In this document: positions 1 to 55,610 of the stretch, piece after piece
How the letters are laid out: every line of letters begins with the position of its first letter
Numbering within the stretch: position 1 is the first letter of the stretch
Assembly: GCA_024679065.1 (NCBI GenBank)
Contig: JAGIQG010000023.1
Coordinates: 43,710,001-43,774,000 of the forward strand
Direction: 5' to 3'
DNA length: 64,000 nt
DNA from: Sphyrna mokarran
Lineage: Eukaryota
The notes under the pieces: generated by a model
Told to the model about the DNA's origin: nothing
Seen by the model: the letters and a program-made list of their open reading frames with translations, nothing else
The model's database searches: none
Position numbers and translations under genes: made by a program

Positions 1-278
1 ACAGTCAGAGATTGCTGATTAGAATGCGAATCCTTACATCTAATACATTGAATAGCAGGTTAGATGTAAGGATTTGCATTCTAATCAGCAATCTCTGACT
101 GTCTGTGCTGATGTGTGCTATTGCAGACCAGAACACTGCACTTGCCTGATGAAGACACGGGAGTGTTGAAAGCTCGCTATTTTACTATCAAATACATCGG
201 TTGGATTAATAATTGGTGTTGCTAAATTCTTACTGAGTTCTTACCACTCCAATCCAACGCCGGCATCTTTACATCATT
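1..278 (+). mobile_element. Penelope-like element pseudo-LTR (family A) with fold-back and hammerhead motif
   Basis: Similar to the 3' region of the GIY-YIG-encoding copy at 51370-51910. Ends in ccaatccaacgccggcatctttacatca. Contains a 43-bp inverted repeat. Confidence 0.8.
142..179 (+). ncRNA. Minimal hammerhead ribozyme motif (weak stem I)
   Basis: CTGATGA 146-152, extra A, stem II GACAC/GTGTT, GAAA 168-171, GCTC. Stem I is only about 2-3 bp. Confidence 0.55.
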
Positions 279-6149: not shown

Positions 6150-6262
6150 ATTACAAAGCAGAAGTACTATCAAAAGCCAACTTATGACTCTCTGCAGAGC
6201 AGCCTGGAGGCCATGAAGAGACACTGCCTGAACAATGAAGTCACGCACATCTCAATGCCCAG
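6150..6262 (+). CDS. OARD1: OARD1 coding exon (113 nt), carries the catalytic Lys
   Basis: Acceptor tatttgcag and donor gtacaa. Translates [38 protein letters not shown]; the K of LITK corresponds to human K84. Confidence 0.95.
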
Positions 6263-7599
6263 GTACAAATTGGAAATTTAAATTGGTTTTGCCCACTTTT
6301 CCATTTATCAAATTTCTTGTTTGCCTCATTAGAAAAAAAAACAAGCTAGGTCTTGAAATATACACCCACAGTGCAACAACTTTATATATTAATTGAACCT
6401 TGTAGAGGGCAAAGACGTTGACCAATAATGGTGTTCATTCACAATAACCAAAAGCAGCGTCTAAAGACTGTTGCTTCAATCTACTGAAGCCTAAAGTTCT
6501 GAAGATTGATCTGATCACATCATATATTCTATATTGCCACTAACCTAGGTGAGAGAAATTGTGCAGATTGGAAGGAGAGACTTAAACAGTGAGAGGGATC
6601 AGGTGATGGGAGAATTAAAAGCAATAGAGCAGGGATTTGGCTACAGATAAGAGGGAGCAGAGTTTAACAATAATAATGTATCAGTGAATATGGTTCATGT
6701 CAAGAATAGTTTTAAAAAAAAAGACACTTTCTGGACTAGGCATTAAGATAAACAAGTGACACAAATGTAGATTAAATTGCTTAGATTCAGGTGCCGTTTC
6801 AGAAACATGGGATAGAATTATTCCATGCTGTTACTATGAGAACAATGGCGAGTGGAGGAGGAAAAATTCAACAGGAGGCCTACAAAATCAGTTTTGCGTT
6901 GGTGTTTAATGACGGCAGTATCTTCCATGGGGGATTGGGCCTCGTGTTGGAGGCCTACTGATTTGAATTCCACAAATGCAATACAGCTGCCTGATGCTCT
7001 GCAACACTAGCAAGAATACACCAGTTCAAAACAAGCCTTTGGCAGAGCATACACTGCTATCTGTGGATGAGAAGTTCCAAGTTTGAATCCAACACCAGAA
7101 CAGAAGGAAGGTTCACAACACAGTTTAGTAGGCTGATAATCAGCTCAAATCCTTCCACCATTTCCCCCAGTGGGTGTAAAGATGCTCTAAACAAAAAGGT
7201 GGCATGCAAAAGTTGGGACTTGCCTGACTAAGGCCTAGGGCTGCCTCCAGTGTTTGTGATGGAGACTGCCAATGACCTTGGACCCTGGAACAACACAATA
7301 CAGGGAGGATGGGCATATGTCAAATAGCTCTTCCAGTTTCAGTCACTAAAGAGATCCATCCTTTTCAATGACATTGGGCATCTTTTTAAATATGACAACC
7401 AGATATAATGGCAGGATGAGTGCCATCAAGCCAGCACCACTACAGGATGGAGCAAGGTTCTGAAATGCATTATCAAGAACAAAAGATGTGACATGGTCAC
7501 CTGATGCCCTCTGTAGCAGGAAACACTCCCTGTCCCTTCCCCTGTCCTGGGACTTAACCCCAGATGGCAGAATTCTGCCCATGGTTACAAGGTGACTTT

Positions 7600-9995
7600 G
7601 GAAAATAAATATTCCAGGACACCCAACATTTTGAAAAGATATGTGAAATATAAAAGGAGGAAAAGCCTTGATAGTAAAAACTAATGTAAGAATAATCAGG
7701 AGAGAGAAATCGAAGTGCCATTGGTTTGAATAAATAATAGAAATAATTAAGGTCAGGTGGGAGTAACTTGCCCTGGAACAGAGCGTCAAGCAAGAAATAA
7801 TTTGAACAAAGGCAGTGCAATAATTATGATCTTTAATTTTAATGTAGACTGGATAAATCAAATTAGCAAAGGTGGTTTGGACAGTGAGTTTGTAGAATAC
7901 TTTTAGACAGTTTCCTGGAACAGTACATTGTGGGACTAACTAGGTTTAACAAGTTAAACTGGATTTAATTTGCATCATTATGACAGATCTGGTGGAAAAA
8001 TGTGGTCATAATACAATTGAATTCAAAATTAAACTTGAGCATCCTACTCCAGTCCCAAAGAAGAATCTGAATTATGTAATTGACTTTGTTTACATTTGAG
8101 AGCTGTCTAAGGTTGATTTATAGACTAAAATATATAGTGGTAAATAAACAGGGAAACCTTTTAAAGAAACAATTCAAAATATGCCTCTCAGCACCAGGAG
8201 CGTGGGTTCAATTTCCAGCTTGTCAGTTTGTGTGCAGTTTGCACGCTCTCCCCGTACTGTGTGTGTTTCCTCCCATAGTCTGAATGACGTGCTGGTTAGA
8301 GGATTGACCTGAACAGACACCGGAGAGTGATGACATGGGAAATTTTGCAGTAACTTCATTGCAGTGTTAATGTAAGCCTTATTTGTGACTAATAAATAAA
8401 TTTTAACTTGCAATCAAAACAAAAACTCAACAAAGATTAATTTGTCACTTAGGACATTTAATAGGTTAAAAAAGCTTGTAGTAATGCTCAAAATGGAACT
8501 TGGCCTCAAAGGGAGAGTTCTAGAAACCAGTAAATGAAAAGGAGAGAATAATATAAATGTAGAAAGTGTACTAGCAGGAATATAAAACCAGATAAGATTT
8601 TTGACAAGAATATGAAAGGGCAATAAGTTGGTTCCTTAGAAGTTCAGATAACAGAAATGATCATGGAAATGAGGGAAAAAAGCAGCAACATTGAAATAGT
8701 ATGTCTGTCTTCAGTAGAAAATACTGGTTCTGGAATGCACTGTAAGGAAGTGCATTGCAGGTAAGTTCAATCGAGGCATTAGATGGTCATTTGAATGGAA
8801 ACCAAGGAGAACAAAGCAGGTGAATAGTCCTAAGTCATGTTCATTTGGACAGCCAGTGCAGACAATAGGCTGAATGTTATTGAGTGAGACATCAATGTTG
8901 TGATATCAATTACATACCAAAATAGAAGCTAATCAAGAAGCTCATAAGCTTAAATTATTCATTATTAGCAGAAGGAAATCTTATTGGAAAAATTAGAGGA
9001 CTGTGATGGACTGAGTGAGAAACATTAACTAGAGGAATAGAAAAGCAGTGGCAAATATTCAAACAGTGCATGGGTGAACATCAACAATTGTTTATTACTG
9101 TCTAGCATAGAAATGAAACAAAAGATGGCTAAGCCATGGCTTACAAGCAAAATTAGATGGTATTCGATCCCAGGAAGAGGCATACGTTTTGGCCAGAAAA
9201 AGAAACAGACCTGACGATTGCAAGCAGTTTAGAATTCAAAGGAGGAATAAAGGATTGATTAAGGGGAAAATAAGAGTACGTGGTAAGCTTGCCAGGAACA
9301 TAAGAACTGACTGTAAATGTTTCTGTACATATGTGAAGAGGAAAAGATTGAGGACTGCTAATGTACAAAGAACAAAAAATGTAGGTCCCTTACAGTGAGA
9401 CATGAATCTATAATGGGGAGCAAAAATACAGCTGATCACTAAATACTTAGTTCTGCCTTCACAAAGGAGGACACAAATAACATACCAGAATTGATGGAGA
9501 ACACAGTGGGAGAAACTGAAAGAAGAGTATTAGTAGCAAAATATTGGGGAAATTGGGGCTTTACCAGCCTTAAATCCCATGGCCTGATGACCTGCATCCC
9601 AGTGCATTTAAGAATGCAGACCCAGAAATAGTGATGGATGTGTCGATGGGGGAGGGTGGGTTTAGATAAGATGCTTGTTTGGTTCACTCTTGATGGGCTG
9701 AATGGCCATCCTCCTGCAATACAGGGATTCTATAGTTCAGTGTAATTTTTGTCAAGCTGAGTGAGCAAATGCAGGGCAGATAGTAAGCTTATGGAATTCA
9801 CTTCTACAGAAAGCAATTGAGGTTTTTAAACGTTTTCAAAGAGGAGTTGGATATAGTTCTTGGGATGAGGGAGATCAAAGGAGATGGGGGGAGGGGGGGG
9901 GAGAGGTGAAATCAAGCTATTGAGTTGGATAATCAGCCACACTCCTAATGGCACCGCAGGCTCAAAGCAGCAAATGGCCTACTCCTGTTTCTAAA
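7600..9995 (+). mobile_element. Heavily decayed CR1 ORF2 fragments
   Basis: Endonuclease/linker remnants (KPWLT, KLARNIRTDCKCFCTYVKRK, NVGPLQ) and a CR1 3' tail near 9900-9995; contains nested SINE and LINE pieces. Confidence 0.7.
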
Positions 9996-10679
9996 AGCCA
10001 ACAAATCCCCTCTATTTGATGCCCTACTTCCAGTTGGGAAATTGCTGAGATTTATTACTAAGGAAGTCTTAAAAGTGCACTGAGAAAATCAGTATAATCA
10101 GGCAGAATAAATGTGCTTTACAGAAGGAAAATTCTGTTTTGGTAAATTTTAAGTTTTTTTAGAATCAAAGAACAAAACAGCATGGGAAACAGGCCCTTCA
10201 GCCCAACGAGCCCACACCGCCACCCTGATGTTCCCACCTCTACTCATGATCCCTGTCCATATTTATGGATATAAAACCAAATTTGAGACAATTTAGGGAG
10301 AATTTGTTTTCCCAATTAGCCTAAGAGCACATCTTTGGGATGTGGGAGGAAACCGGAGCACCTGAAAACCCACGCAAGCATGGGGAGAATGTGCAAACTC
10401 CCACAGACACAGACCCAAATCCATGTATCTGCACAGCACAGCGATAGTCACTGAGCTATCATGTTGCCCATCAAATGGTCCAGGTCAAGCATACACTAAC
10501 AACGTGAAGCACTAGGATACTCAAAAAAAAAAATCCAAGAGCAGCCCTCCCATGACCCATCGCCTGTATGCCCCTCGTTAGACAACAAGGTGGACCAAAG
10601 CACCTGTAGGATAAAAACAAGTACATCAATATCATCTATTACACACTTCCCAGGGACTCCCAAGGCTCATGATCCCTAT

Positions 10680-11640
10680 TTTAAATTAGTTTTCTATACC
10701 CCTCCATTCCCATTCTGTTCATGTGTCCATCTAAGTATTTCTTAAATAACTCTAGAATGCCTGCCTCCACCACTTTACTTGGCAGTGCATTCCATACCCC
10801 CACCACCCTCTGTGTGGGGAAAAAAACTCCCTCTAGCATCCAAATTATACCTTACCCCCCTCACCCTAAGCTCGTGACCCCCTCGTGCTATTCGAGTCCA
10901 TCCTAGGAAAAAGCTTAACCCTGTTTACTCTATCTATACCCCTCAATCTTGTATACCTCTATTAGTTCTCCTCTAAGTCTGCATCTTTCTAAGGAAAACA
11001 GTCCCAATTTGCCTAACCTCTCCTCGTAACTCAGACCTTCCATACCAGACAGCATCCTGGTGAACCTCCTCTGCACTCTCTCCAGAGTCTCCACATCCTT
11101 CCGGTAGTAGGGTGACCAGAACTGGATGCAATATTCCAAATGAGGTCTAACCAACGTTTTATACAACTGCAACATTAAAGGCCAGTTCTTGTACTCTATG
11201 CCCCTTCCATATGCTTTCTTCACAACCTTCTCCACTTGCTCTGCCACCTTCAGAGACTTGTTCACCTGCACCCCCAGGTCCCTCTGTGTTTCTGTACTCT
11301 CAATAGGTCTACCCTTCATCATATACCTCCCCCCTACATTCTTTCTCCTGAAATGCATCACCTCACGTTTATCAAGATTGAATTCCATCTGTTCTGCCCA
11401 AGCTACCAGCCTATGTCCTGCTGCATTGCCTGACAATGCTCCTCACTATCCGCAAGTCCAGCCATTTTCATATCGTCTGCAAACTTGCTGATCACTCCAC
11501 TTACTCTCTCTTCCAAGTCATTTATATATATTACAAATAGAAGAGGTCCCTGTACCGAGCCCTGCAGCACACCACTAGTGACCAACCTCCAGCTAGAAAA
11601 ACACCCTTCCACTATTACACTGTCTCCTATTACCAAGCCT
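10680..11640 (-). mobile_element. CR1-clade LINE RT fragment
   Basis: ORFs 11403-11636 (GVLQGSVQGPLLF, KFADD) and 10930-11436 ([14 protein letters not shown]). Confidence 0.92.
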
Positions 11641-11644
11641 GTTA

Positions 11645-11950
11645 CAATTCCCTACAGAGCAGAAGCAGGCCATTTGGCCCATTGAGACTGCACTGACAAC
11701 AATCTCACCTAGGCCCTATCCTCTTAACCCAATGTATTTATCCTGCTAGTTCCCCTGAAAACCAACGAGCAATTTAGCATAGCCAATCAACCTAACCAGC
11801 TTTTCCTTGGAGAAGGGGAGGAAAACAGAGCATCCGGAGGAAACACATACATACTGGGAGAATGTGCAAGCTCCATACAGTGACCCAAGGCTAGAATCAA
11901 ACCCATGTCCCTGGCACTCAGGCAGCAGTGATAACCAATGTGCCATCATA
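11645..11950 (-). mobile_element. HE1-like SINE, type 1
   Basis: Full head, core and tail on the - strand. Confidence 0.8.
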
Positions 11951-12060
11951 TCACCATTCAGGATGTAACTATTTGGGGAAAAAAGGAAACCAGTAGATGT
12001 AACATACCTGGATTTCCAATCAATAAGATTATACCAAGGTGAATATGCAAGATAAGAACT

Positions 12061-12250
12061 CGTCGACTTTTCATTCTTGCGGCGTTTAGCAGGTGTTAGG
12101 GAAAATTCCCTGCTCGGCCCACCTGATGAAGGAATAGCCAATTCCGAAAGCTAGTGGCATTTGCTACAAATAAACCTGTTAGACTTTAACCTAGTGATGT
12201 GAGACTTCTTACTGTGCCTACTCCAATCCAACGCTGGCATCTCCACATTA
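12061..12250 (+). mobile_element. Penelope-like pseudo-LTR fragment (family A)
   Basis: aaataaacctgttagactttaacct...ccaatccaacgctggcatctccacat terminus shared with the other copies. Confidence 0.75.
12119..12157 (+). ncRNA. Minimal type I hammerhead ribozyme motif, intact core
   Basis: Stem I CCAC (12119-22)/GTGG (12154-57); CTGATGA 12123-29; extra A; stem II GGAAT/ATTCC; GAAA 12146-49; AGCT palindrome in place of stem III; predicted cleavage after CUA (12153). Confidence 0.75.
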
Positions 12251-13410
12251 AGAAAAAAGACCCAAAAGGTGGAGTTGATTGCAGGGGGCTAGGTGTGGGA
12301 TGGTGTTTGATCAATTGAGCTGGGTAAAAGTTTGGAGACAGCCACGTCGGGTGCCAAGGTGGTCTGTAGAGATCCTTCAGCCCTTGCTCCTTGCACACAT
12401 TCTCTATGCCACCTCATTCCTCCTGTACCTAACAGTGCAGAAGGCATGTTTTCATTTATTCCATGGAGGGTTTTTCCACAACAGATTGCTAGCCTGCTGC
12501 AAGAGGCTTAAGAGGATGCTGCTTGTATCAAGCATGGCTGACCAGGAGTGTCTCATGCTCTTAATCCTTGCCATTGGCATGTGTTAGGAGGATTTTGTAG
12601 GATGGTGTTATGAATGCCATCAAGTTCTGAGGTGATACTTGAACCTGGAGCTTCTGGCTCAGAGATGGGGACTCTACATACTATGCCACAAAACCAACTT
12701 ATACCTGACCCCTCAGATATTTTTGGAAAAGTGGCTTCCTCAAGCTGAGTGGAATCATGGGTGCACAGTCATAGGATAAGTATTCTATCATTTAGAACTA
12801 GGGTGAGGAAAAATTGCAGAAAGTTGTGGATGTTTGCCATTCTCTACCCCAGGAGGTTGTGAATGCTCCATCATTGTGGGATTCAAGGTAACTGGGGAGC
12901 CAGCAGGAAATTGGACTTGAATAGAATGATCAACCATGATCGTATTAAATAGCAAAGCAGGCTCAAGGGATATGTTGTCTATTCCTGCTCCTGTTACTTG
13001 TGACCTTCAGTGTTAAGTCATGTCTATTAGCTTTAAGATTCTGCCTCACCACAGGAATGCATTGCTTTTTTAAAATTTATTCGTGGGATATATGTGTTAC
13101 TGGGTCACCAATATCTATCCCTAATTGCCTTTCAACTGAGTGGCTTCTTAGGCTACTCCAGGGCATGTTTAAGAGTCACCATATATAGGCCAGACAAAGC
13201 AAAGGCTTTCACTAAAGGATGTTTGTGAACCAGATGGGTTTTTATGAAAATTGACTGTTTTTGTGGTCATCCTTTAGCTTTTCCGGATTTTTATTGAATT
13301 CACATTTTGCATATCTGCTGTTGTGGAACTTGAACCCCACGTTCCCAGGGCATAACCCTGGGTCTCTGAATTATTAGCCCAACTGAAGGGCATTGTTGTT
13401 TTTTCCACAG

Positions 13411-13573
13411 GATCGGATGTGGACTGGATAAACTGAAATGGGGCATTGTTTCTTCAATAATTCATCAAGTCTTTAAGGACACCAATATTGGAATCACCGT
13501 GTACACTCTGGAATCACCTGCGAAGGGTAATTCCCATGTTGAGAGGCAGCTTTCTATCACAAGTTGCATGTGA
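13411..13573 (+). CDS. OARD1: OARD1 last coding exon
   Basis: Acceptor ttttttccacag. Translates [33 protein letters not shown] (D of GCGLD = human D125), then [20 protein letters not shown] and TGA at 13571-13573. Confidence 0.92.
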
Positions 13574-14680: not shown

Positions 14681-17624
14681 AGTTAAACAATTGCTGCTGT
14701 TTAGATATTGACTTGTGTACAGTATGTAACTTGTTCCAGAAACCTACCTATCTTCAGGAAAAGGTTAGGAACTCCAGTTTTGATGGACCTTGGAGTTTCT
14801 GAGCATGTTTAATCAGCATTTTAAGTTATGACTGAGGACTGGCCCAGTGCACCTGCTGAAAACAGGCATGAAAACCCAGACTGTAACTGGCAACAGCATT
14901 GTAGATAAGATTCTCAGGCAAGGAATGAGAAGAGATTACAGTTAAGTTAAAAAGAAAACTTAGTTTGAAAGCAAGAAAAGATCAACAGTTGGCAGATTAA
15001 ATGGAGAGTTCAGGAGAAGCCCTGATGGGCAGAAGAACAAAGAACAAAACAGCACGGGAAACAGGCCCTTTGGCCCAACAAGCCCATGCTGCCACCCTGA
15101 TGTCCCCACCTCTACCCGCTAGTTGGTGACTCCATGCTGTGGCCCATTTCAGCATAGGTAACCATTTAGAGCAGTAGGATTTTGTTTGGCCATGCCAAAC
15201 AACTGAAATAGGGCTTGTTAGTGCTTGAGTACATTTTCTGGAATCCAGGGACATAGAGTCTTGGGAGACAGGTTTAGTATAATACATGGTGTGCTGTCAT
15301 TTGAGACTTCTGTGGTTAGAATTCCAAGGTCAACACTATAAATCCATTGAGAGAATGAGACTTTCAATGAGATGGGTTAACTTGCTAGCTGGAATTTTAC
15401 TGCCATGGAATCTGAGTGGGCAACGGGGCAGACTGTGGAAAGGTCCATTGAGCTCACAATTTTACAGTTTCAGGATGAGTGAGGCCAGAAAATCCCACCC
15501 ACTCTTTCTTGACATCTCAGTGGATTGTTGAGCAATCCACGGACTCCACCTTGGTTGCATCTGCCATTATTATGCTGAGGTCTGTTAAGCCATAGTTTGC
15601 TGGTTAATTCTCATGTAACTTGTATTAACCCTTGATGTTACAAAACATGTTATAAACATATTATAAATTGTTTTATAACCTTATGGCAGCAAGGCTGCCA
15701 CCCCAGGAAGGAATCATTTCTTAAGTTCTGTTTTTTCCGTTCTTTTAGACAGAATGCAGATTGTCTTCACGTGATGTTTAAATTATTTTCTTCTGTCAGC
15801 TCTAATTTTGTCAATTATCTTTTAAATTTGTCCTCTGGTAACTGAGCCTTCTGCCATTGAAAATGTGCTTTTTTATTTACTTTAACCTCTATAGTTTGAG
15901 CACTTCTATAAATCTCATCTTAACCTTCACAAAGAAAAACCTGAATTTCTCTTCCTTGTGACTGAAGTCTTTCACTCCCTGGTACATAGATAAAACATAT
16001 TGCCTATGTCCTGCCCAAGGCTGACAGGTTGGCTTAAAAATATTCCTTGCTTTTAGATTCTGTGTCTCTTTATTTAAAAGCCATCTTCCTTTTCAAAACC
16101 TCTCAAGTATTTTCAAAGACTTGTGAATGCACACACTTTGGCTTCTGATCTTGGCAGTTGGGCTCAACTGACTCTTGATTTTCTACAAGTTTATTGGTTA
16201 TGGTGAGCAGATGAACACACCAGCCAATTAATGTTGGTATGCAGCTCGTGAAGCTGGATGGTCAGTAGGAGGCCTTTCTTGAAAATAGCAACAGGTAATG
16301 CGGTGAGTAAGCGAGGAGAAAGCATCCTAACCTGGAGGCACCAGTTACAATATTCTCAAATTTAAAATGGCCTGTGCAACAGGGCCATTACATTTATGTT
16401 GGGGGAACTCCTCTACTGGGTGATCTGCTACTACTCCCAGGGAGTGGAGTTCTATATGCTTGGAATGTGAACCCCCTGGTTTACCATGGGGAGGCTGCCT
16501 TACTATAATTGAACTTCCCCCACTATCCACATGGCTCTGTATTCTGACTGGAAAGTTCCAACTGGTTGTCTTCAACATACCTTAAGTGCTTTTATCAAGC
16601 TTAATCAACTGCCTGTGGTAAGTGGGCAAGTAGCCCTATTGTATCCCAATTCCAGAAAAAGGCTGGGATGGAGCCTGGAAAACACTGGTTTTAGTGCAAT
16701 TTTTTCCTTGTCGCAGCAGGAGTGAATAATCCTCTTCCATGTCTTTGTTCCTGCACCCACTTTAAAATTATAACATTTATTTTGCATTGCCTCCAAGACA
16801 TGCACTTTCTATGAAAATGAATCACTTCAGATCTTAAAAGCTCATAATTTACCTGCCCACTTCACCATCTGCTTCTGTCCTCCTCCAGGTCTGATACTGT
16901 CCTCCTCAGTCTTTGCCACATTTGAGTTTCTGCAAACTTCAGAACTTATTCCCAAGTCTAAAAAGAACAGTGCTCCCTGGGGAGACCACTTTCCTTCAGT
17001 GTGGAAAAGCAGCTGTTCCCACTTTCTCTCGTCTTTCTGTCCCTGAGCCAATGTTACTTTAATCCCATGGGCTTCAATTTCTATTTAAAATATTGTTGAC
17101 ATTGACTTGAAGGAGATACCAGCTATTACTCAGTAAACTGATAATACTCGCAATGAACTCTCCATGACTGAGCCTTAGTCTGCATAACTGACACAGTTAA
17201 CCTTCCAGGCCAGGACTCTCAATTATATTATCAATGCATTCTACACACAGAATCTGTAAAACCTAACAGTGGCAGATTGAATTAAAACCCTACAGGAATT
17301 AAACAATAGGATTTTTGGGAAAGTCATTCACAGCCAACAGTGCCAAGGCAAAGTACTGCCAGAAATAGAAACTTAAACTGAATAACAAAAAGAAATGTTC
17401 AGGTCCAGCAGCAGCTGTGGAGAGAAAGAAACAAGAATTAATGTTCATGATCTTTTGCTAAACTAGCAAAATTTAGGGATGCAATGGCTTATAGGCAGAG
17501 CCAGCTGAAGCATAGGGTAGAGAATGTGAAGAGGAAAGTCTGTGACAGGCAGGAGTGGTTAAATGGCAGAAATGATTGTGACCAGCGAAAGGACAAGTAA
17601 CGAAACAAAAGAGAGGCTCAACGT

Positions 17625-18634: not shown

Positions 18635-18830
18635 AAGATGTGGAGTTGCTGGTTTTGGACTGGGGTAAGCACAGTCAACACCAGGTTAGAGTCCAACAGG
18701 TTTATTTGGTAGCACAAACTTTGGAAATGCTGCCCCTTCATCAGGTGAATGGATGAAGGAGCAGTGCTCCAAAATCTTTTGTACCAAATAAATCTGTTGG
18801 ACTTTAACCTGGTGTTGAGACTACTTACGA
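18635..18830. mobile_element. Two inverted Penelope-like pseudo-LTR fragments forming a palindrome
   Basis: Arms 18675-18742 and 18752-18818 are imperfect reverse complements. Both contain degenerate hammerhead cores. Confidence 0.75.
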
Positions 18831-24919: not shown

Positions 24920-25606
24920 ACAACCATGACACAGGACTCTGTGCTATAAGGGATGTTATGATGTAAAGATGCCGGCGTTGGATTGGGGTGGTAAGAACTC
25001 AGTAAGAATTTAGCAACACCAATTAATCGGTGTTGCTAAATTCTTATAAGGGATGTTCCCAGAGACATATCAAGATAATAGCTGTTACTGGAGGATCGCT
25101 AACTTCACGAAAGACGCCGCTCTTTCCACACAAACCTTGTTGATCTTCCGGTTAAAAGAATTGTCCTCCGAATGTTGCAGACTGGCACTTTCCAAAGCCC
25201 AGGGCTGTGTGCTGAGAGATGCACAAGCTTGGGGCGGCTGCTACAGAGGTCCAAAGGGGGGAAGGTTCCAAGCCCTTTCAGCCACTCTGAACTGAGGAAG
25301 GTGGAACTGAATAGAACTTACTCGGGCGGCCATATAACTTTCATTGAATGTATACATGAATATTGCATGCACAGAAGCACCTTGATGCAACCTGATCCCT
25401 GCTGGCAACTTAAATACCTCTGTACCATTTGTAATGACCATTTTGAAATGTCTGTAATGTTTCTTTAACTATACTAAAGCACTTCGCGAGTCCAACATAA
25501 TGTAGGTAGAGAACCTGAATATTATTGCACTGTGTATGACAGCCTTTTGTAAGTGTGTGTAATGTTCTTTCAGATGTTTTACAAATAAAATATAGTTTTG
25601 TAATAA
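24920..25606 (+). mobile_element. Tx1/L1-clade LINE 3' end
   Basis: DSVL.GMFP...CYWRIANFTKDA...LLIFRLKELSSECCRLALSKAQGCVLRDA remnant, then a 3'UTR ending aataaaat...aataaa. Interrupted by the mini-PLE. Confidence 0.6.
24958..25044 (-). mobile_element. Miniature Penelope-like insertion with inversion and target-site duplication
   Basis: Reverse complement of the roughly 209-278 terminus. Flanked by the direct repeat TATAAGGGATGTT at 24945-24957 and 25045-25057. Confidence 0.85.
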
Positions 25607-32714: not shown

Positions 32715-33249
32715 CTAGGCGTGATGTAGAATTTCATTTAATTTTTCTTCATAGAACATGCTGCTGTCTTGAAGGTCCTCCCAAGGAGCGAAAGCTTCCC
32801 CCTCATTTTCCACGTAGGTGTTCCAGCAGTAGTTATACTCTGGCGCCTTCATGATCCTCAATCGGCACCCAGCCCCGTGCAGTTTCCGCAGACCCTGCTG
32901 GATCTCAGCCTCTTCCCACATGTACAGGCGAGCCATGAAGATGGTGAGCTGGACGTTGGGGCACTTGCTCAGGTACTCAGCCAGTTTGGCGGCGCACACT
33001 GCGCAAGGGCTGGAGGACACGTACCAAATGATGGAGTAGCTCAAGCTGCCATCACACTCTGTGAAGATATCTGTGAAGAAGACGTTTTCTGCGTGTGTGC
33101 CTGCATGCTCATCCTCCACGTATCCCTCCGACCTGTCACAATCCGTGCCCTGTTTCTCCACGGAGTAGCACAGGAAGGTTTTGTGTCGCCCCGAAGAATA
33201 TTCCACATTTTTGAACTGGAATTTGAAGAAAAGGGATGGCATGCGTTGC
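32715..33249 (-). CDS. APOBEC2: APOBEC2 coding exon 2 (cytidine deaminase-like domain)
   Basis: Acceptor cttctttcctttccag. Translates QRMPSLFFKFQFKNVEYSSGRHKTFLCY...HAENVFF...WYVSSSPCAVC...RLYMWEEAEIQ...PWEDLQDSSMFYEEKLNEILHHA*. Contains APOBEC2-specific FKFQF.NVEYSSGR and the HxE/PCxxC zinc motif. Spliced CDS is 669 nt (222 aa plus stop). Confidence 0.97.
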
Positions 33250-34254
33250 CTGGAAAGGAAAGAAGTGGATGTTATTGGATGTAGCAAGAAAATAAAGTAG
33301 TCCTGTCTCATCACTAGAGCACTTAGATAAAATATACAATGGTCAGAAACACTTCTGCATGTAAGCAATTGCATTTGTAAATAGGATATCTTTATATTAA
33401 AAACTCCCAAGGCACTTCATGAGGATTTTTTATAGAATCATAGAATCCCTACAGTGCAGAAGGAGGCCATTCAGCCCATCAAGCCTACACTGACAACAAT
33501 CCCACCCAAGGCCTATTCCCATAACCCCACGTATTTACCCTGCTAATCCCCCTGACACTAATGGGCAATTTAACATAGCCAATCCACCTAACCCGCACAT
33601 CTTTTGACTATGGGTGTTACCATAAAGAAATTGGCACAGAGGGCAGGATTTTTCAGCCACGCTCGCCCCAAAACTGGAGCATCCTACCCGAGGTCAATGG
33701 ATCTTTGCATGGTCTGTTTCTCCCACCCTGCCAGCTAGAATTCCGATGGCCGGTGTGACGGGAAAACTGCCCCCCTCCCCCACCTACTGAAGTCACAGCA
33801 GGAGACCTTAGGGCAGATGATCAAAGGTTTGGTCAGAGGTAGGTCAAAAGAGCATTTTAAAAAAAAAGGCAAGAGATTTGAGGAAAAGATTCCACAGTTC
33901 AGCCCTAAGGCTGAAAGCAAGGCTGCCAATGATGGTGGAAGATCAGCGGGAGCGGGTTGTTGCACCAGAGGATGTGACAGAAATTGGTATAATGTAACTA
34001 TCACTATTCCTAATGCTTTATAGCTGATATTTTCCAGATGAACTCCTTCCAGTTATTTAATCTTGATTTAAACCATGCATCAGCCCCATTCAGATAGTAG
34101 CTCCCTGAAGTCTGAGTAAGAAAGTTGTATGTTTAAACTCCGAGACTAGACTGTATAATCCCAGCCTTCATTTCAATAATGAAGAAATAGAAAATGGCTG
34201 AGGATTGCCCTCTAGATTCGGGACAGAGAAAAAGGTCAGGGAGCTTTGCTCTGA

Positions 34255-51369: not shown

Positions 51370-51910
51370 GTAAGAGGTCTGACAACACCAATTTTAAATC
51401 CAACCGATTTATTTGATGGTAAACCCACAAGCTTTCGGCTTTTGTAGCCTTCCTCAGGCGAATGAGGTGTCCTGGTCTGCAACAGTACACATGTCAGCAC
51501 AGACAGTTTACAGATTACTGATTAGAATGCGAATCCTTACACCTAACCTGCTATTCAAGTGTTAAAGTGGCTAACAATGTGAGTGGAAGGAGCACTGAAC
51601 ACACGTTAGAGAGATGTGTATTGCCTCCAGACAGCACAGTAAGTGAGGTTTTTTGCTAACCCAGGCAAGTCATGGGGGTTACAGATAGTGTGACACGAAG
51701 CCAAAATCCCTGTTAAGACCGTCCTTGTGTGCAGAACTTGGCTATCAGTCTCTGCTCAGCGACTCTGCACTGTCGTGTGTCGTGAAGGCCCCCTTGAAGA
51801 ACATTTACCCGAAGGTCGGAGGCCGAATGCCTGTGACCGCTGAAGTGTTCGCCAACAGGAAGGGAACAGTTTTGCCTGGTGATTGTCGAGCGATGTTCCT
51901 TTCATCCAAC
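51370..51910 (-). mobile_element. Penelope-like element 3' end: GIY-YIG endonuclease C-terminus plus pseudo-LTR
   Basis: The - strand reads HRSTITRQNCSLPVGEHFSGHRHSASDLRVNVLQGGLHDTRQCRVAEQRLIAKFCT, then after a frameshift DGLNRDFGFVSHYL*. This fits the PLE GIY-YIG tail pattern (HF...H...E..LI..F...GLN). Confidence 0.85.
51424..51462 (-). ncRNA. Minimal hammerhead ribozyme motif in PLE pseudo-LTR
   Basis: The - strand reads TTCGC CTGAGGA A GGCT ACAAA AGCC GAAA GCTT GTGGG. Stem I pairs using G-U wobbles. Confidence 0.7.
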
Positions 51911-55258: not shown

Positions 55259-55610
55259 GGGGGTTACAGATAGTGTGGCATAAATCTCCATGGACTTGCC
55301 TGTGCTTGCAACATCTCACTTACTGTCTTGTCTGGAGACAATACACATCTCTTTAACCTATGCTTAATGCTATCTCCACTCACATTGTCTGCACCTTTAA
55401 GATTTGATTAGCTGTAAAGACTCGCATTCTAAACTGAATGTGTGCCTTTATATGCCCTGTTTGTGATCAAAACTCTCCACTCATCTGACAAAGGAGCAAA
55501 ACCCCACAAGCTAGTGGTGTTTGCTTACAAATAAACCTGTTAGACTTTAACCTGGTATTGTGAGACGTCTTACTGTGTTTACCCCAGTCCAACACCAGCA
55601 TCCCCAACTC
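55259..55610 (+). mobile_element. Penelope-like pseudo-LTR (family A) with short 5' inversion and decayed hammerhead
   Basis: Starts with ggggttacagatagtgtg (the ORF end in inverted orientation), then runs antiparallel to 51370-51680. The core has decayed to ctgacaaaggagc...caagctag. Confidence 0.75.

Follow-up and report, generated by a model that had tools for sequence, protein, structure and literature searches.

Minimal hammerhead ribozymes (min-HHRs) lie in the end repeats of metazoan Penelope-like elements (PLEs), with thousands of copies in each of the coelacanth and Xenopus genomes, according to the accessible text of PMC4209133. They are type I hammerheads with an extra base between A9 and G10.1, a G10.1-C11.1 pair, a short helix I of 4-5 bp and a helix III that is missing or replaced by a short palindrome; most are solo copies and some form opposite-strand pairs. 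In the same text, the S. mansoni min-HHR monomer showed no detectable cleavage, dimers and trimers cleaved at a low level, and a possible need for host factors in vivo is suggested. Endonuclease-bearing (EN+) PLEs of the Neptune clade are described, in the available part of PMC8557442, as having a single frame with a reverse transcriptase (RT), a CX2-5CxxC linker and, at its C-terminus, a GIY-YIG endonuclease, and their copies show 5' truncation, inverted partial copies, two 3' end points and a tail of 30-40 bp. Type I hammerheads of likely retroelement origin also reside in sense orientation in introns of the amniote genes RECK, CTCL/C10orf118 and DTNB, where they are conserved across species and have been shown to cleave (PMC6155905 and PMC10761166, accessible portions). 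Finally, animal non-LTR retrozymes carry a hammerhead derived from PLE end repeats and occur as dispersed monomers, many of them intronic, and the accessible part of the report defines them by tandem units (bioRxiv 10.64898/2026.07.22.740005).

Here we report on a minimal type I hammerhead motif at positions 12119-12157 (plus strand) of a 64,000-nucleotide stretch of the Sphyrna mokarran genome (the window), found by direct reading, folding and descriptor search. With residues numbered by the hammerhead convention and PMC4209133 (as far as accessible), stem I is formed by CCAC (12119-12122) and GTGG (12154-12157), and CTGATGA (12123-12129) supplies core residues C3 to A9 and is followed by the extra A12130 (together 12123-12130), which is unpaired between A9 and G10.1. 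Stem II and its loop span 12131-12145 (GGAAT 12131-12135, loop 12136-12140, ATTCC 12141-12145), with G12131-C12145 as the G10.1-C11.1 pair. The segment 12146-12153 consists of GAAA (12146-12149) and GCTA (12150-12153) and holds G12 to A14, the AGCU palindrome (12149-12152) and H17, which is A12153. The core CUGANGA, GAAA and UH is complete, and all five pairs of stem II and all four of stem I are Watson-Crick. Helix III is replaced by AGCU, i.e. one pair closing a 2-nt loop. The layout is as first described in a sequence-only reading of the window, its letters and stems having been verified, and the cut that this reading placed after 12153 agrees with the position predicted from H17 (12153/12154). 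Compared with the known class, stem II has 5 bp as against 7-8 bp in Schistosoma, and the 2-nt palindromic insert of AGCU resembles the D. virilis-type variant (PMC4209133, accessible text). Judged by its letters, the motif shows those hallmarks of min-HHRs that can be tested on sequence.

On its own, the loose core pattern is poorly specific, with matches in 18 of 100 shuffles. The full descriptor (core, both stems and palindrome) matched the window twice, at 12123 (+) and 51457 (-); in the shuffle control any match was seen in 2 of 200 sequences and one as good as that at 12123 in none of 200. In folding calculations the isolated 39-mer forms both stems at -9.1 kcal/mol (z -1.98; 9 of 200 shuffles equal). 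A hammerhead model search, as proposed in the sequence-only reading, was thus positive at 12123 (+) with the full descriptor and negative with Rfam: no hammerhead reached the gathering score in the whole window, nor E≤10 in 11500-12800. Given the clear evidence from the descriptor and the family, we take the missing Rfam match to be a limit of the models.

A repeat of 131 bp (12118-12248, +) opens with the motif in its first 40 bases; by alignment this repeat is the 5'-truncated, solo 3' end of a PLE, made up of pseudo-LTR and tail. A search of the 2.77-Gb genome with this repeat gave 4,262 candidates, and the best of the 40 that were scored cover the same 131-bp span at 87-92% identity; 12118 and 12248 fall at modal 5' and 3' ends of family copies. 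No target-site duplication was found at 12118-12248 (the longest word common to both flanks is 5 nt), there is no tandem array around it, and no second copy of the same subfamily with a core was found within the host gene OARD1.

Longer family copies reach as far as 1.47 kb upstream of the repeat, and this extension translates to RT-end pieces, a C-x4-C-x2-C linker and an endonuclease; because these copies run on into an RT and GIY-YIG-like frame, the hammerhead sits in a PLE end repeat. The RT/endonuclease frame has 35,907 candidates in the genome. Two loci of a sister subfamily, L121 (3045-5534, -) and L122 (2366-4849, +), retain near-complete open frames, 829 and 827 aa long. RVT_1 was recognised in them with E-values of 5.6e-7 and 2.4e-9, above the cut-off, and a candidate GIY-YIG match had E≈4e-4 and 21 bits, just under the cut-off of 22.6; Pfam gave no relevant match on six short frame fragments. 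The linker between RT and endonuclease (CX2-5CxxC) reads C-x4-C-x2-C in L121, L122 and L004. L121, which is 78% identical to the 12118-12248 subfamily over 1,488 nt, bears a hammerhead 3' of its frame and starts, at the 5' end, with an inverted copy, and the open frames of L121 and L122 suggest recent activity of the sister subfamily. The original designation was right in calling the motif a minimal type I hammerhead of Penelope type, AGCU being its palindrome. On sequence grounds the element is a PLE, probably endonuclease-bearing, with Neptune-type features, the clade being assigned by the linker motif rather than by a tree. At the family level the likeness to Neptune EN+ PLEs comprises the single frame with RT, linker and a putative GIY-YIG domain, 5' truncation, the inverted partial copy and the 30-40 bp tail (PMC8557442, available part); unlike these, only the last 131 bp are present at 12118-12248, and the near-complete frames belong to the sister subfamily (78% DNA identity).

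At 30 loci the repeat had an inverted partner in 16 cases, inverted and direct partners in 2 and none in 12, i.e. 18 of 30 with an inverted partner. Among 90 copies the 3' end falls at 12211-12216 in 38 and at 12248-12250 in 30, about 35 nt apart; two such 3' end points and inverted partners are known for PLEs (PMC8557442, available part). The 5' end lies at 12117-12122 in 14 of 90, as in the copy studied here. We also observed that in 36 of 90 the 5' end is at most 17 nt upstream of the catalytic core (equivalent to 12106-12122), short repeats blurring the exact point. The 5' ends just beyond the core look as if reverse transcription tends to stop past the ribozyme. That 5' ends at the cut site are a trace of past cleavage was considered and rejected, since only 4 of 90 lie at 12154-12155, which is too weak.

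Other ends of the family occur nearby. A sister-subfamily element end at 142-274 (+), 12 kb upstream, has a sense minimal hammerhead at 146, in which 10.1-11.1 is G-U and stem I is damaged and non-complementary to the 12119 copy. It falls within a head-to-head pair of sister-subfamily Penelope ends at -144 to 275 (G000:C805, spanning the window start), which is 94-97% identical to the near-complete element L121 and therefore younger. At L123 7833-8188, some 1.8-2.2 kb ahead of the window start, lies another inverted pair of Penelope ends, one arm having a descriptor-positive hammerhead antisense to OARD1. A Penelope 3' piece at 51383-51907 (-) combines the end of the endonuclease frame with the descriptor-positive hammerhead at 51457, and more decayed family ends without an intact core are found at 18638-18828, 55294-55606 and 24960-25024.

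The host gene was identified through an exon at 1015-1168 that matches OARD1/C6orf130 in the PDB (a solved human protein; E 6e-20). The coding exons on the plus strand are 1015-1168, 2110-2168, 6150-6262 and 13411-13573, those other than the first having been placed by short motifs and splice sites. Since the flanking coding exons end at 6262 and start at 13411, the last intron is 6263-13410 (+; 7,148 nt), and the last coding exon is 13411-13573 (+). The motif lies on the sense strand of OARD1, about 1.26 kb ahead of the last acceptor, so that the orientation and the position in a roughly 7.1-kb intron before the last exon stand as initially read. Within the element, AATAAA at 12169-12174 (+, sense to OARD1) is a possible candidate for a cryptic polyadenylation signal. 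A contig of run X2 begins at 13408, with 140 of its letters aligning elsewhere. The last OARD1 exon runs about 24 codons beyond the human C-terminus. Further downstream, an APOBEC2 coding exon was recognised at 32715-33416 (-; Pfam E 1.5e-60); the two genes stand tail to tail here, as at the human locus. Some 3-4 kb upstream of the window there is a CpG-island-like kilobase (GC 0.62, CpG ratio 0.63), which is likely the OARD1 promoter.

Intact cores are frequent in this genome. With an 11-nt variable insert, exact intact-core matches number 281 (control 0), and the exact subfamily pattern was matched 38 times with all five stem II pairs kept in 35. If about 40% of the copies were intronic, as for Xenopus retrozymes, and half of these sense, we would expect some tens of intact copies in sense orientation within introns. 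The decay of the core was measured on the first 90 suitable places among 245 matches to a downstream anchor outside the ribozyme; 57 of these span the motif without gaps, and 33 truncated, inverted-junction or indel copies were left out. Across the 57 copies non-CpG changes affect 34 of 513 core positions (6.6%) versus 74 of 972 in the 3' flank (7.6%; p 0.53), so the excess conservation of the core over its flank that had been sought across genomic copies is absent. Catalytic G8 and G12, both in CpGs, were each changed in 16 of 57 copies and C11.1 in 19 of 57. The core was intact in 11 of 57 versus 12.5 expected under independent sites, and core plus both stems in 5 of 57. At the C11.1-G12 step the first 100 of 503 listed matches, counted by eye, read CG in 31, TG in 33, CA in 34 and TA in 2, the lethal change being as common as the mild one. 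C11.1-G12 and C7-G8 being CpG steps, the catalytic guanines of genomic copies tend to be lost spontaneously. Divergence is higher in loop 2 than in the core (31/285 versus 34/513, p 0.04), and core A residues are steadier than free A (4/285 versus 14/228), yet stem II A/U are equally stable and core C and G have no such stability. Taken as sequence statistics, these counts indicate that the core decays at neutral rates after insertion.

Between subfamilies stem II covaries. Among 20 distinct inserts from 30 of the 281 loci, counted by script and with relatedness not corrected, pair 4 was Watson-Crick in 16 versus 10.1 when shuffled (p 0.003) and pair 3 in 16 versus 13.0 (p 0.03); pair 5 showed no covariation in these inserts (p 1.0). 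Such covariation between subfamilies is a sign of selection during the element's active period.

At 12 of its 131 positions the 12119 copy departs from the subfamily majority, a thirteenth difference being an artefact of the gapless majority. Three changes fall within the 39-nt motif; all are harmless and two of them restore a pair. N7 is U where the majority has C, and because this change removes the CpG, G8 lies outside a CpG in this copy. The innermost pair of stem II is U-A in place of C-G, a double change that amounts to an event of about 1% for a named copy. It looks compensatory, yet U-A was found in 4 of 503 copies, which is chance level: from how often each site is changed singly (8 and 10 in the first 100, by eye) about 4 are expected. 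A separate U-A subfamily was rejected: the other three U-A copies are without the downstream changes of the 12119 copy as a set, and the diagnostic 30-mer of the 12119 copy is unique. Given neutral core decay and U-A pairs at chance level, the 12119 copy is likely a lucky survivor and not selected, and the family statistics may be compatible also with selection on a single copy.

Contigs from sequencing run X4, of a relative with flanks about 10% different, bear on the age of the insertion. One matches 11977-12125, its remaining 37 letters no longer aligning, and a second joins 12248 to 12648. The insertion is therefore probably shared with this relative and may be that old, and the core there is probably not identical to that of the 12119 copy, both being weakly indicated. 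A 313-nt contig from run X2 (presumed RNA) matches window positions 12127-12232 with 2 differences (best fetched paralog 9), and its first 207 letters align elsewhere; possibly it is chimeric via 39 nt common to many copies.

Folding was predicted with nearest-neighbour energies, which hold no tertiary contacts, proteins or co-transcriptional order. With at least 40 nt of natural flank the probability of stem I falls from 0.95 to 0.04 or less, and a hairpin at 12154-12167 (+), competing for the 3' strand of stem I, forms with a probability of 0.91-0.97; stem I is thus predicted to be displaced in context because 12154-12167 folds a hairpin of its own. The double-hammerhead fold of a homodimer has -16.3 kcal/mol versus -18.2 for two monomers, and the 4-bp AGCU duplex contributes about -2.5 kcal/mol. 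No compatible dimer partner was found on the sense strand between 4 kb upstream of the window and position 15100. The only sense core of comparable quality in this range is that at 146, and a heterodimer with it was discarded, the crossed stem I yielding a single Watson-Crick pair in each direction; in the copy at -1938 the core is altered.

We consider the motif a PLE end-repeat hammerhead that remains in the OARD1 intron within a truncated insertion of 131 bp and is likely neither active nor selected at this place (probability about 0.88). In RNA of an active element, the AGCU palindromes of two end repeats on the same transcript would pair, with an exchange of stem I strands and a cut after H17 that processes the element RNA, and selection on the ribozyme would have acted at this stage. 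After insertion each copy would decay, fastest at the C11.1-G12 and C7-G8 CpGs, and the 12119 copy likely survived by luck, aided by an early C7-to-U change that freed G8 from its CpG. In OARD1 pre-mRNA the motif would be transcribed with helix III not formed and stem I mostly folded away, and it would then leave with the spliced intron. The proposal that it could cut this pre-mRNA is disfavoured by a core no more conserved than its flank, the solo copy, the lack of a transcript partner in the range searched and the predicted displacement of stem I.

There is a small chance that the copy is competent by accident and unselected, cleaving slowly when dimerised or chaperoned with no effect on the gene. 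All catalytic bases are present, the 39-nt motif has just its three harmless differences from the majority (88 of the 131 positions aside) and dimers of the class cleave weakly in vitro (PMC4209133, accessible text). Two nascent transcripts, however, would have to meet via the 4-bp duplex of about -2.5 kcal/mol before splicing, with stem I predicted to be mostly displaced.

Still less probable is a domesticated intronic ribozyme, selected to cut OARD1 pre-mRNA with protein help or in a dimer of nascent transcripts and so to tune splicing of the last intron. The sense strand, the distance of 1.26 kb to the last acceptor, the complete core and the compensatory-looking U-A pair are in keeping with it, as is the retroelement origin proposed for conserved amniote intronic hammerheads (PMC6155905, accessible part). 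Compared with these, however, the 12119 copy is without helix III, has hundreds of like copies and bears no sign of constraint: intact copies occur at the frequency expected from neutral decay and U-A doubles are at chance. In addition, the X4 contig stops aligning at 12125, the homodimer is less favourable than two monomers, and in reporter work a hammerhead cut within an intron reportedly left splicing intact, a faster ribozyme blocking it (PMC2995048, accessible part). Equally slender are the odds that an old Penelope insertion was recruited and cuts only when nascent transcripts meet via AGCU or a chaperone holds the core; if true, this would mean transcription-rate-dependent control of OARD1 output and the first domesticated minimal hammerhead. 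A look-alike arisen by chance, or a unit of a non-LTR retrozyme without relation to PLEs, which the missing Rfam match might favour, is dismissed with next to no doubt and the motif is real, as the shuffles, the 281 exact core matches (control 0), the solo truncated end with no tandem array and the continuity of longer copies with an RT/endonuclease frame refute both.

As read here, the locus holds a single fossil of an already known class of ribozyme and is of little consequence. We found no description of this PLE hammerhead family from sharks in the literature searched or in the searchable supplement of PMC4209133; the other supplement and subscription papers may contain one. The analysis yields as by-products a measured neutral baseline for judging any claimed domesticated copy in this genome and the identification of C11.1-G12 and C7-G8 as CpG steps. 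If the 12119 copy did cut OARD1 pre-mRNA, minimal PLE hammerheads would act in host genes, a question dating from 2014.
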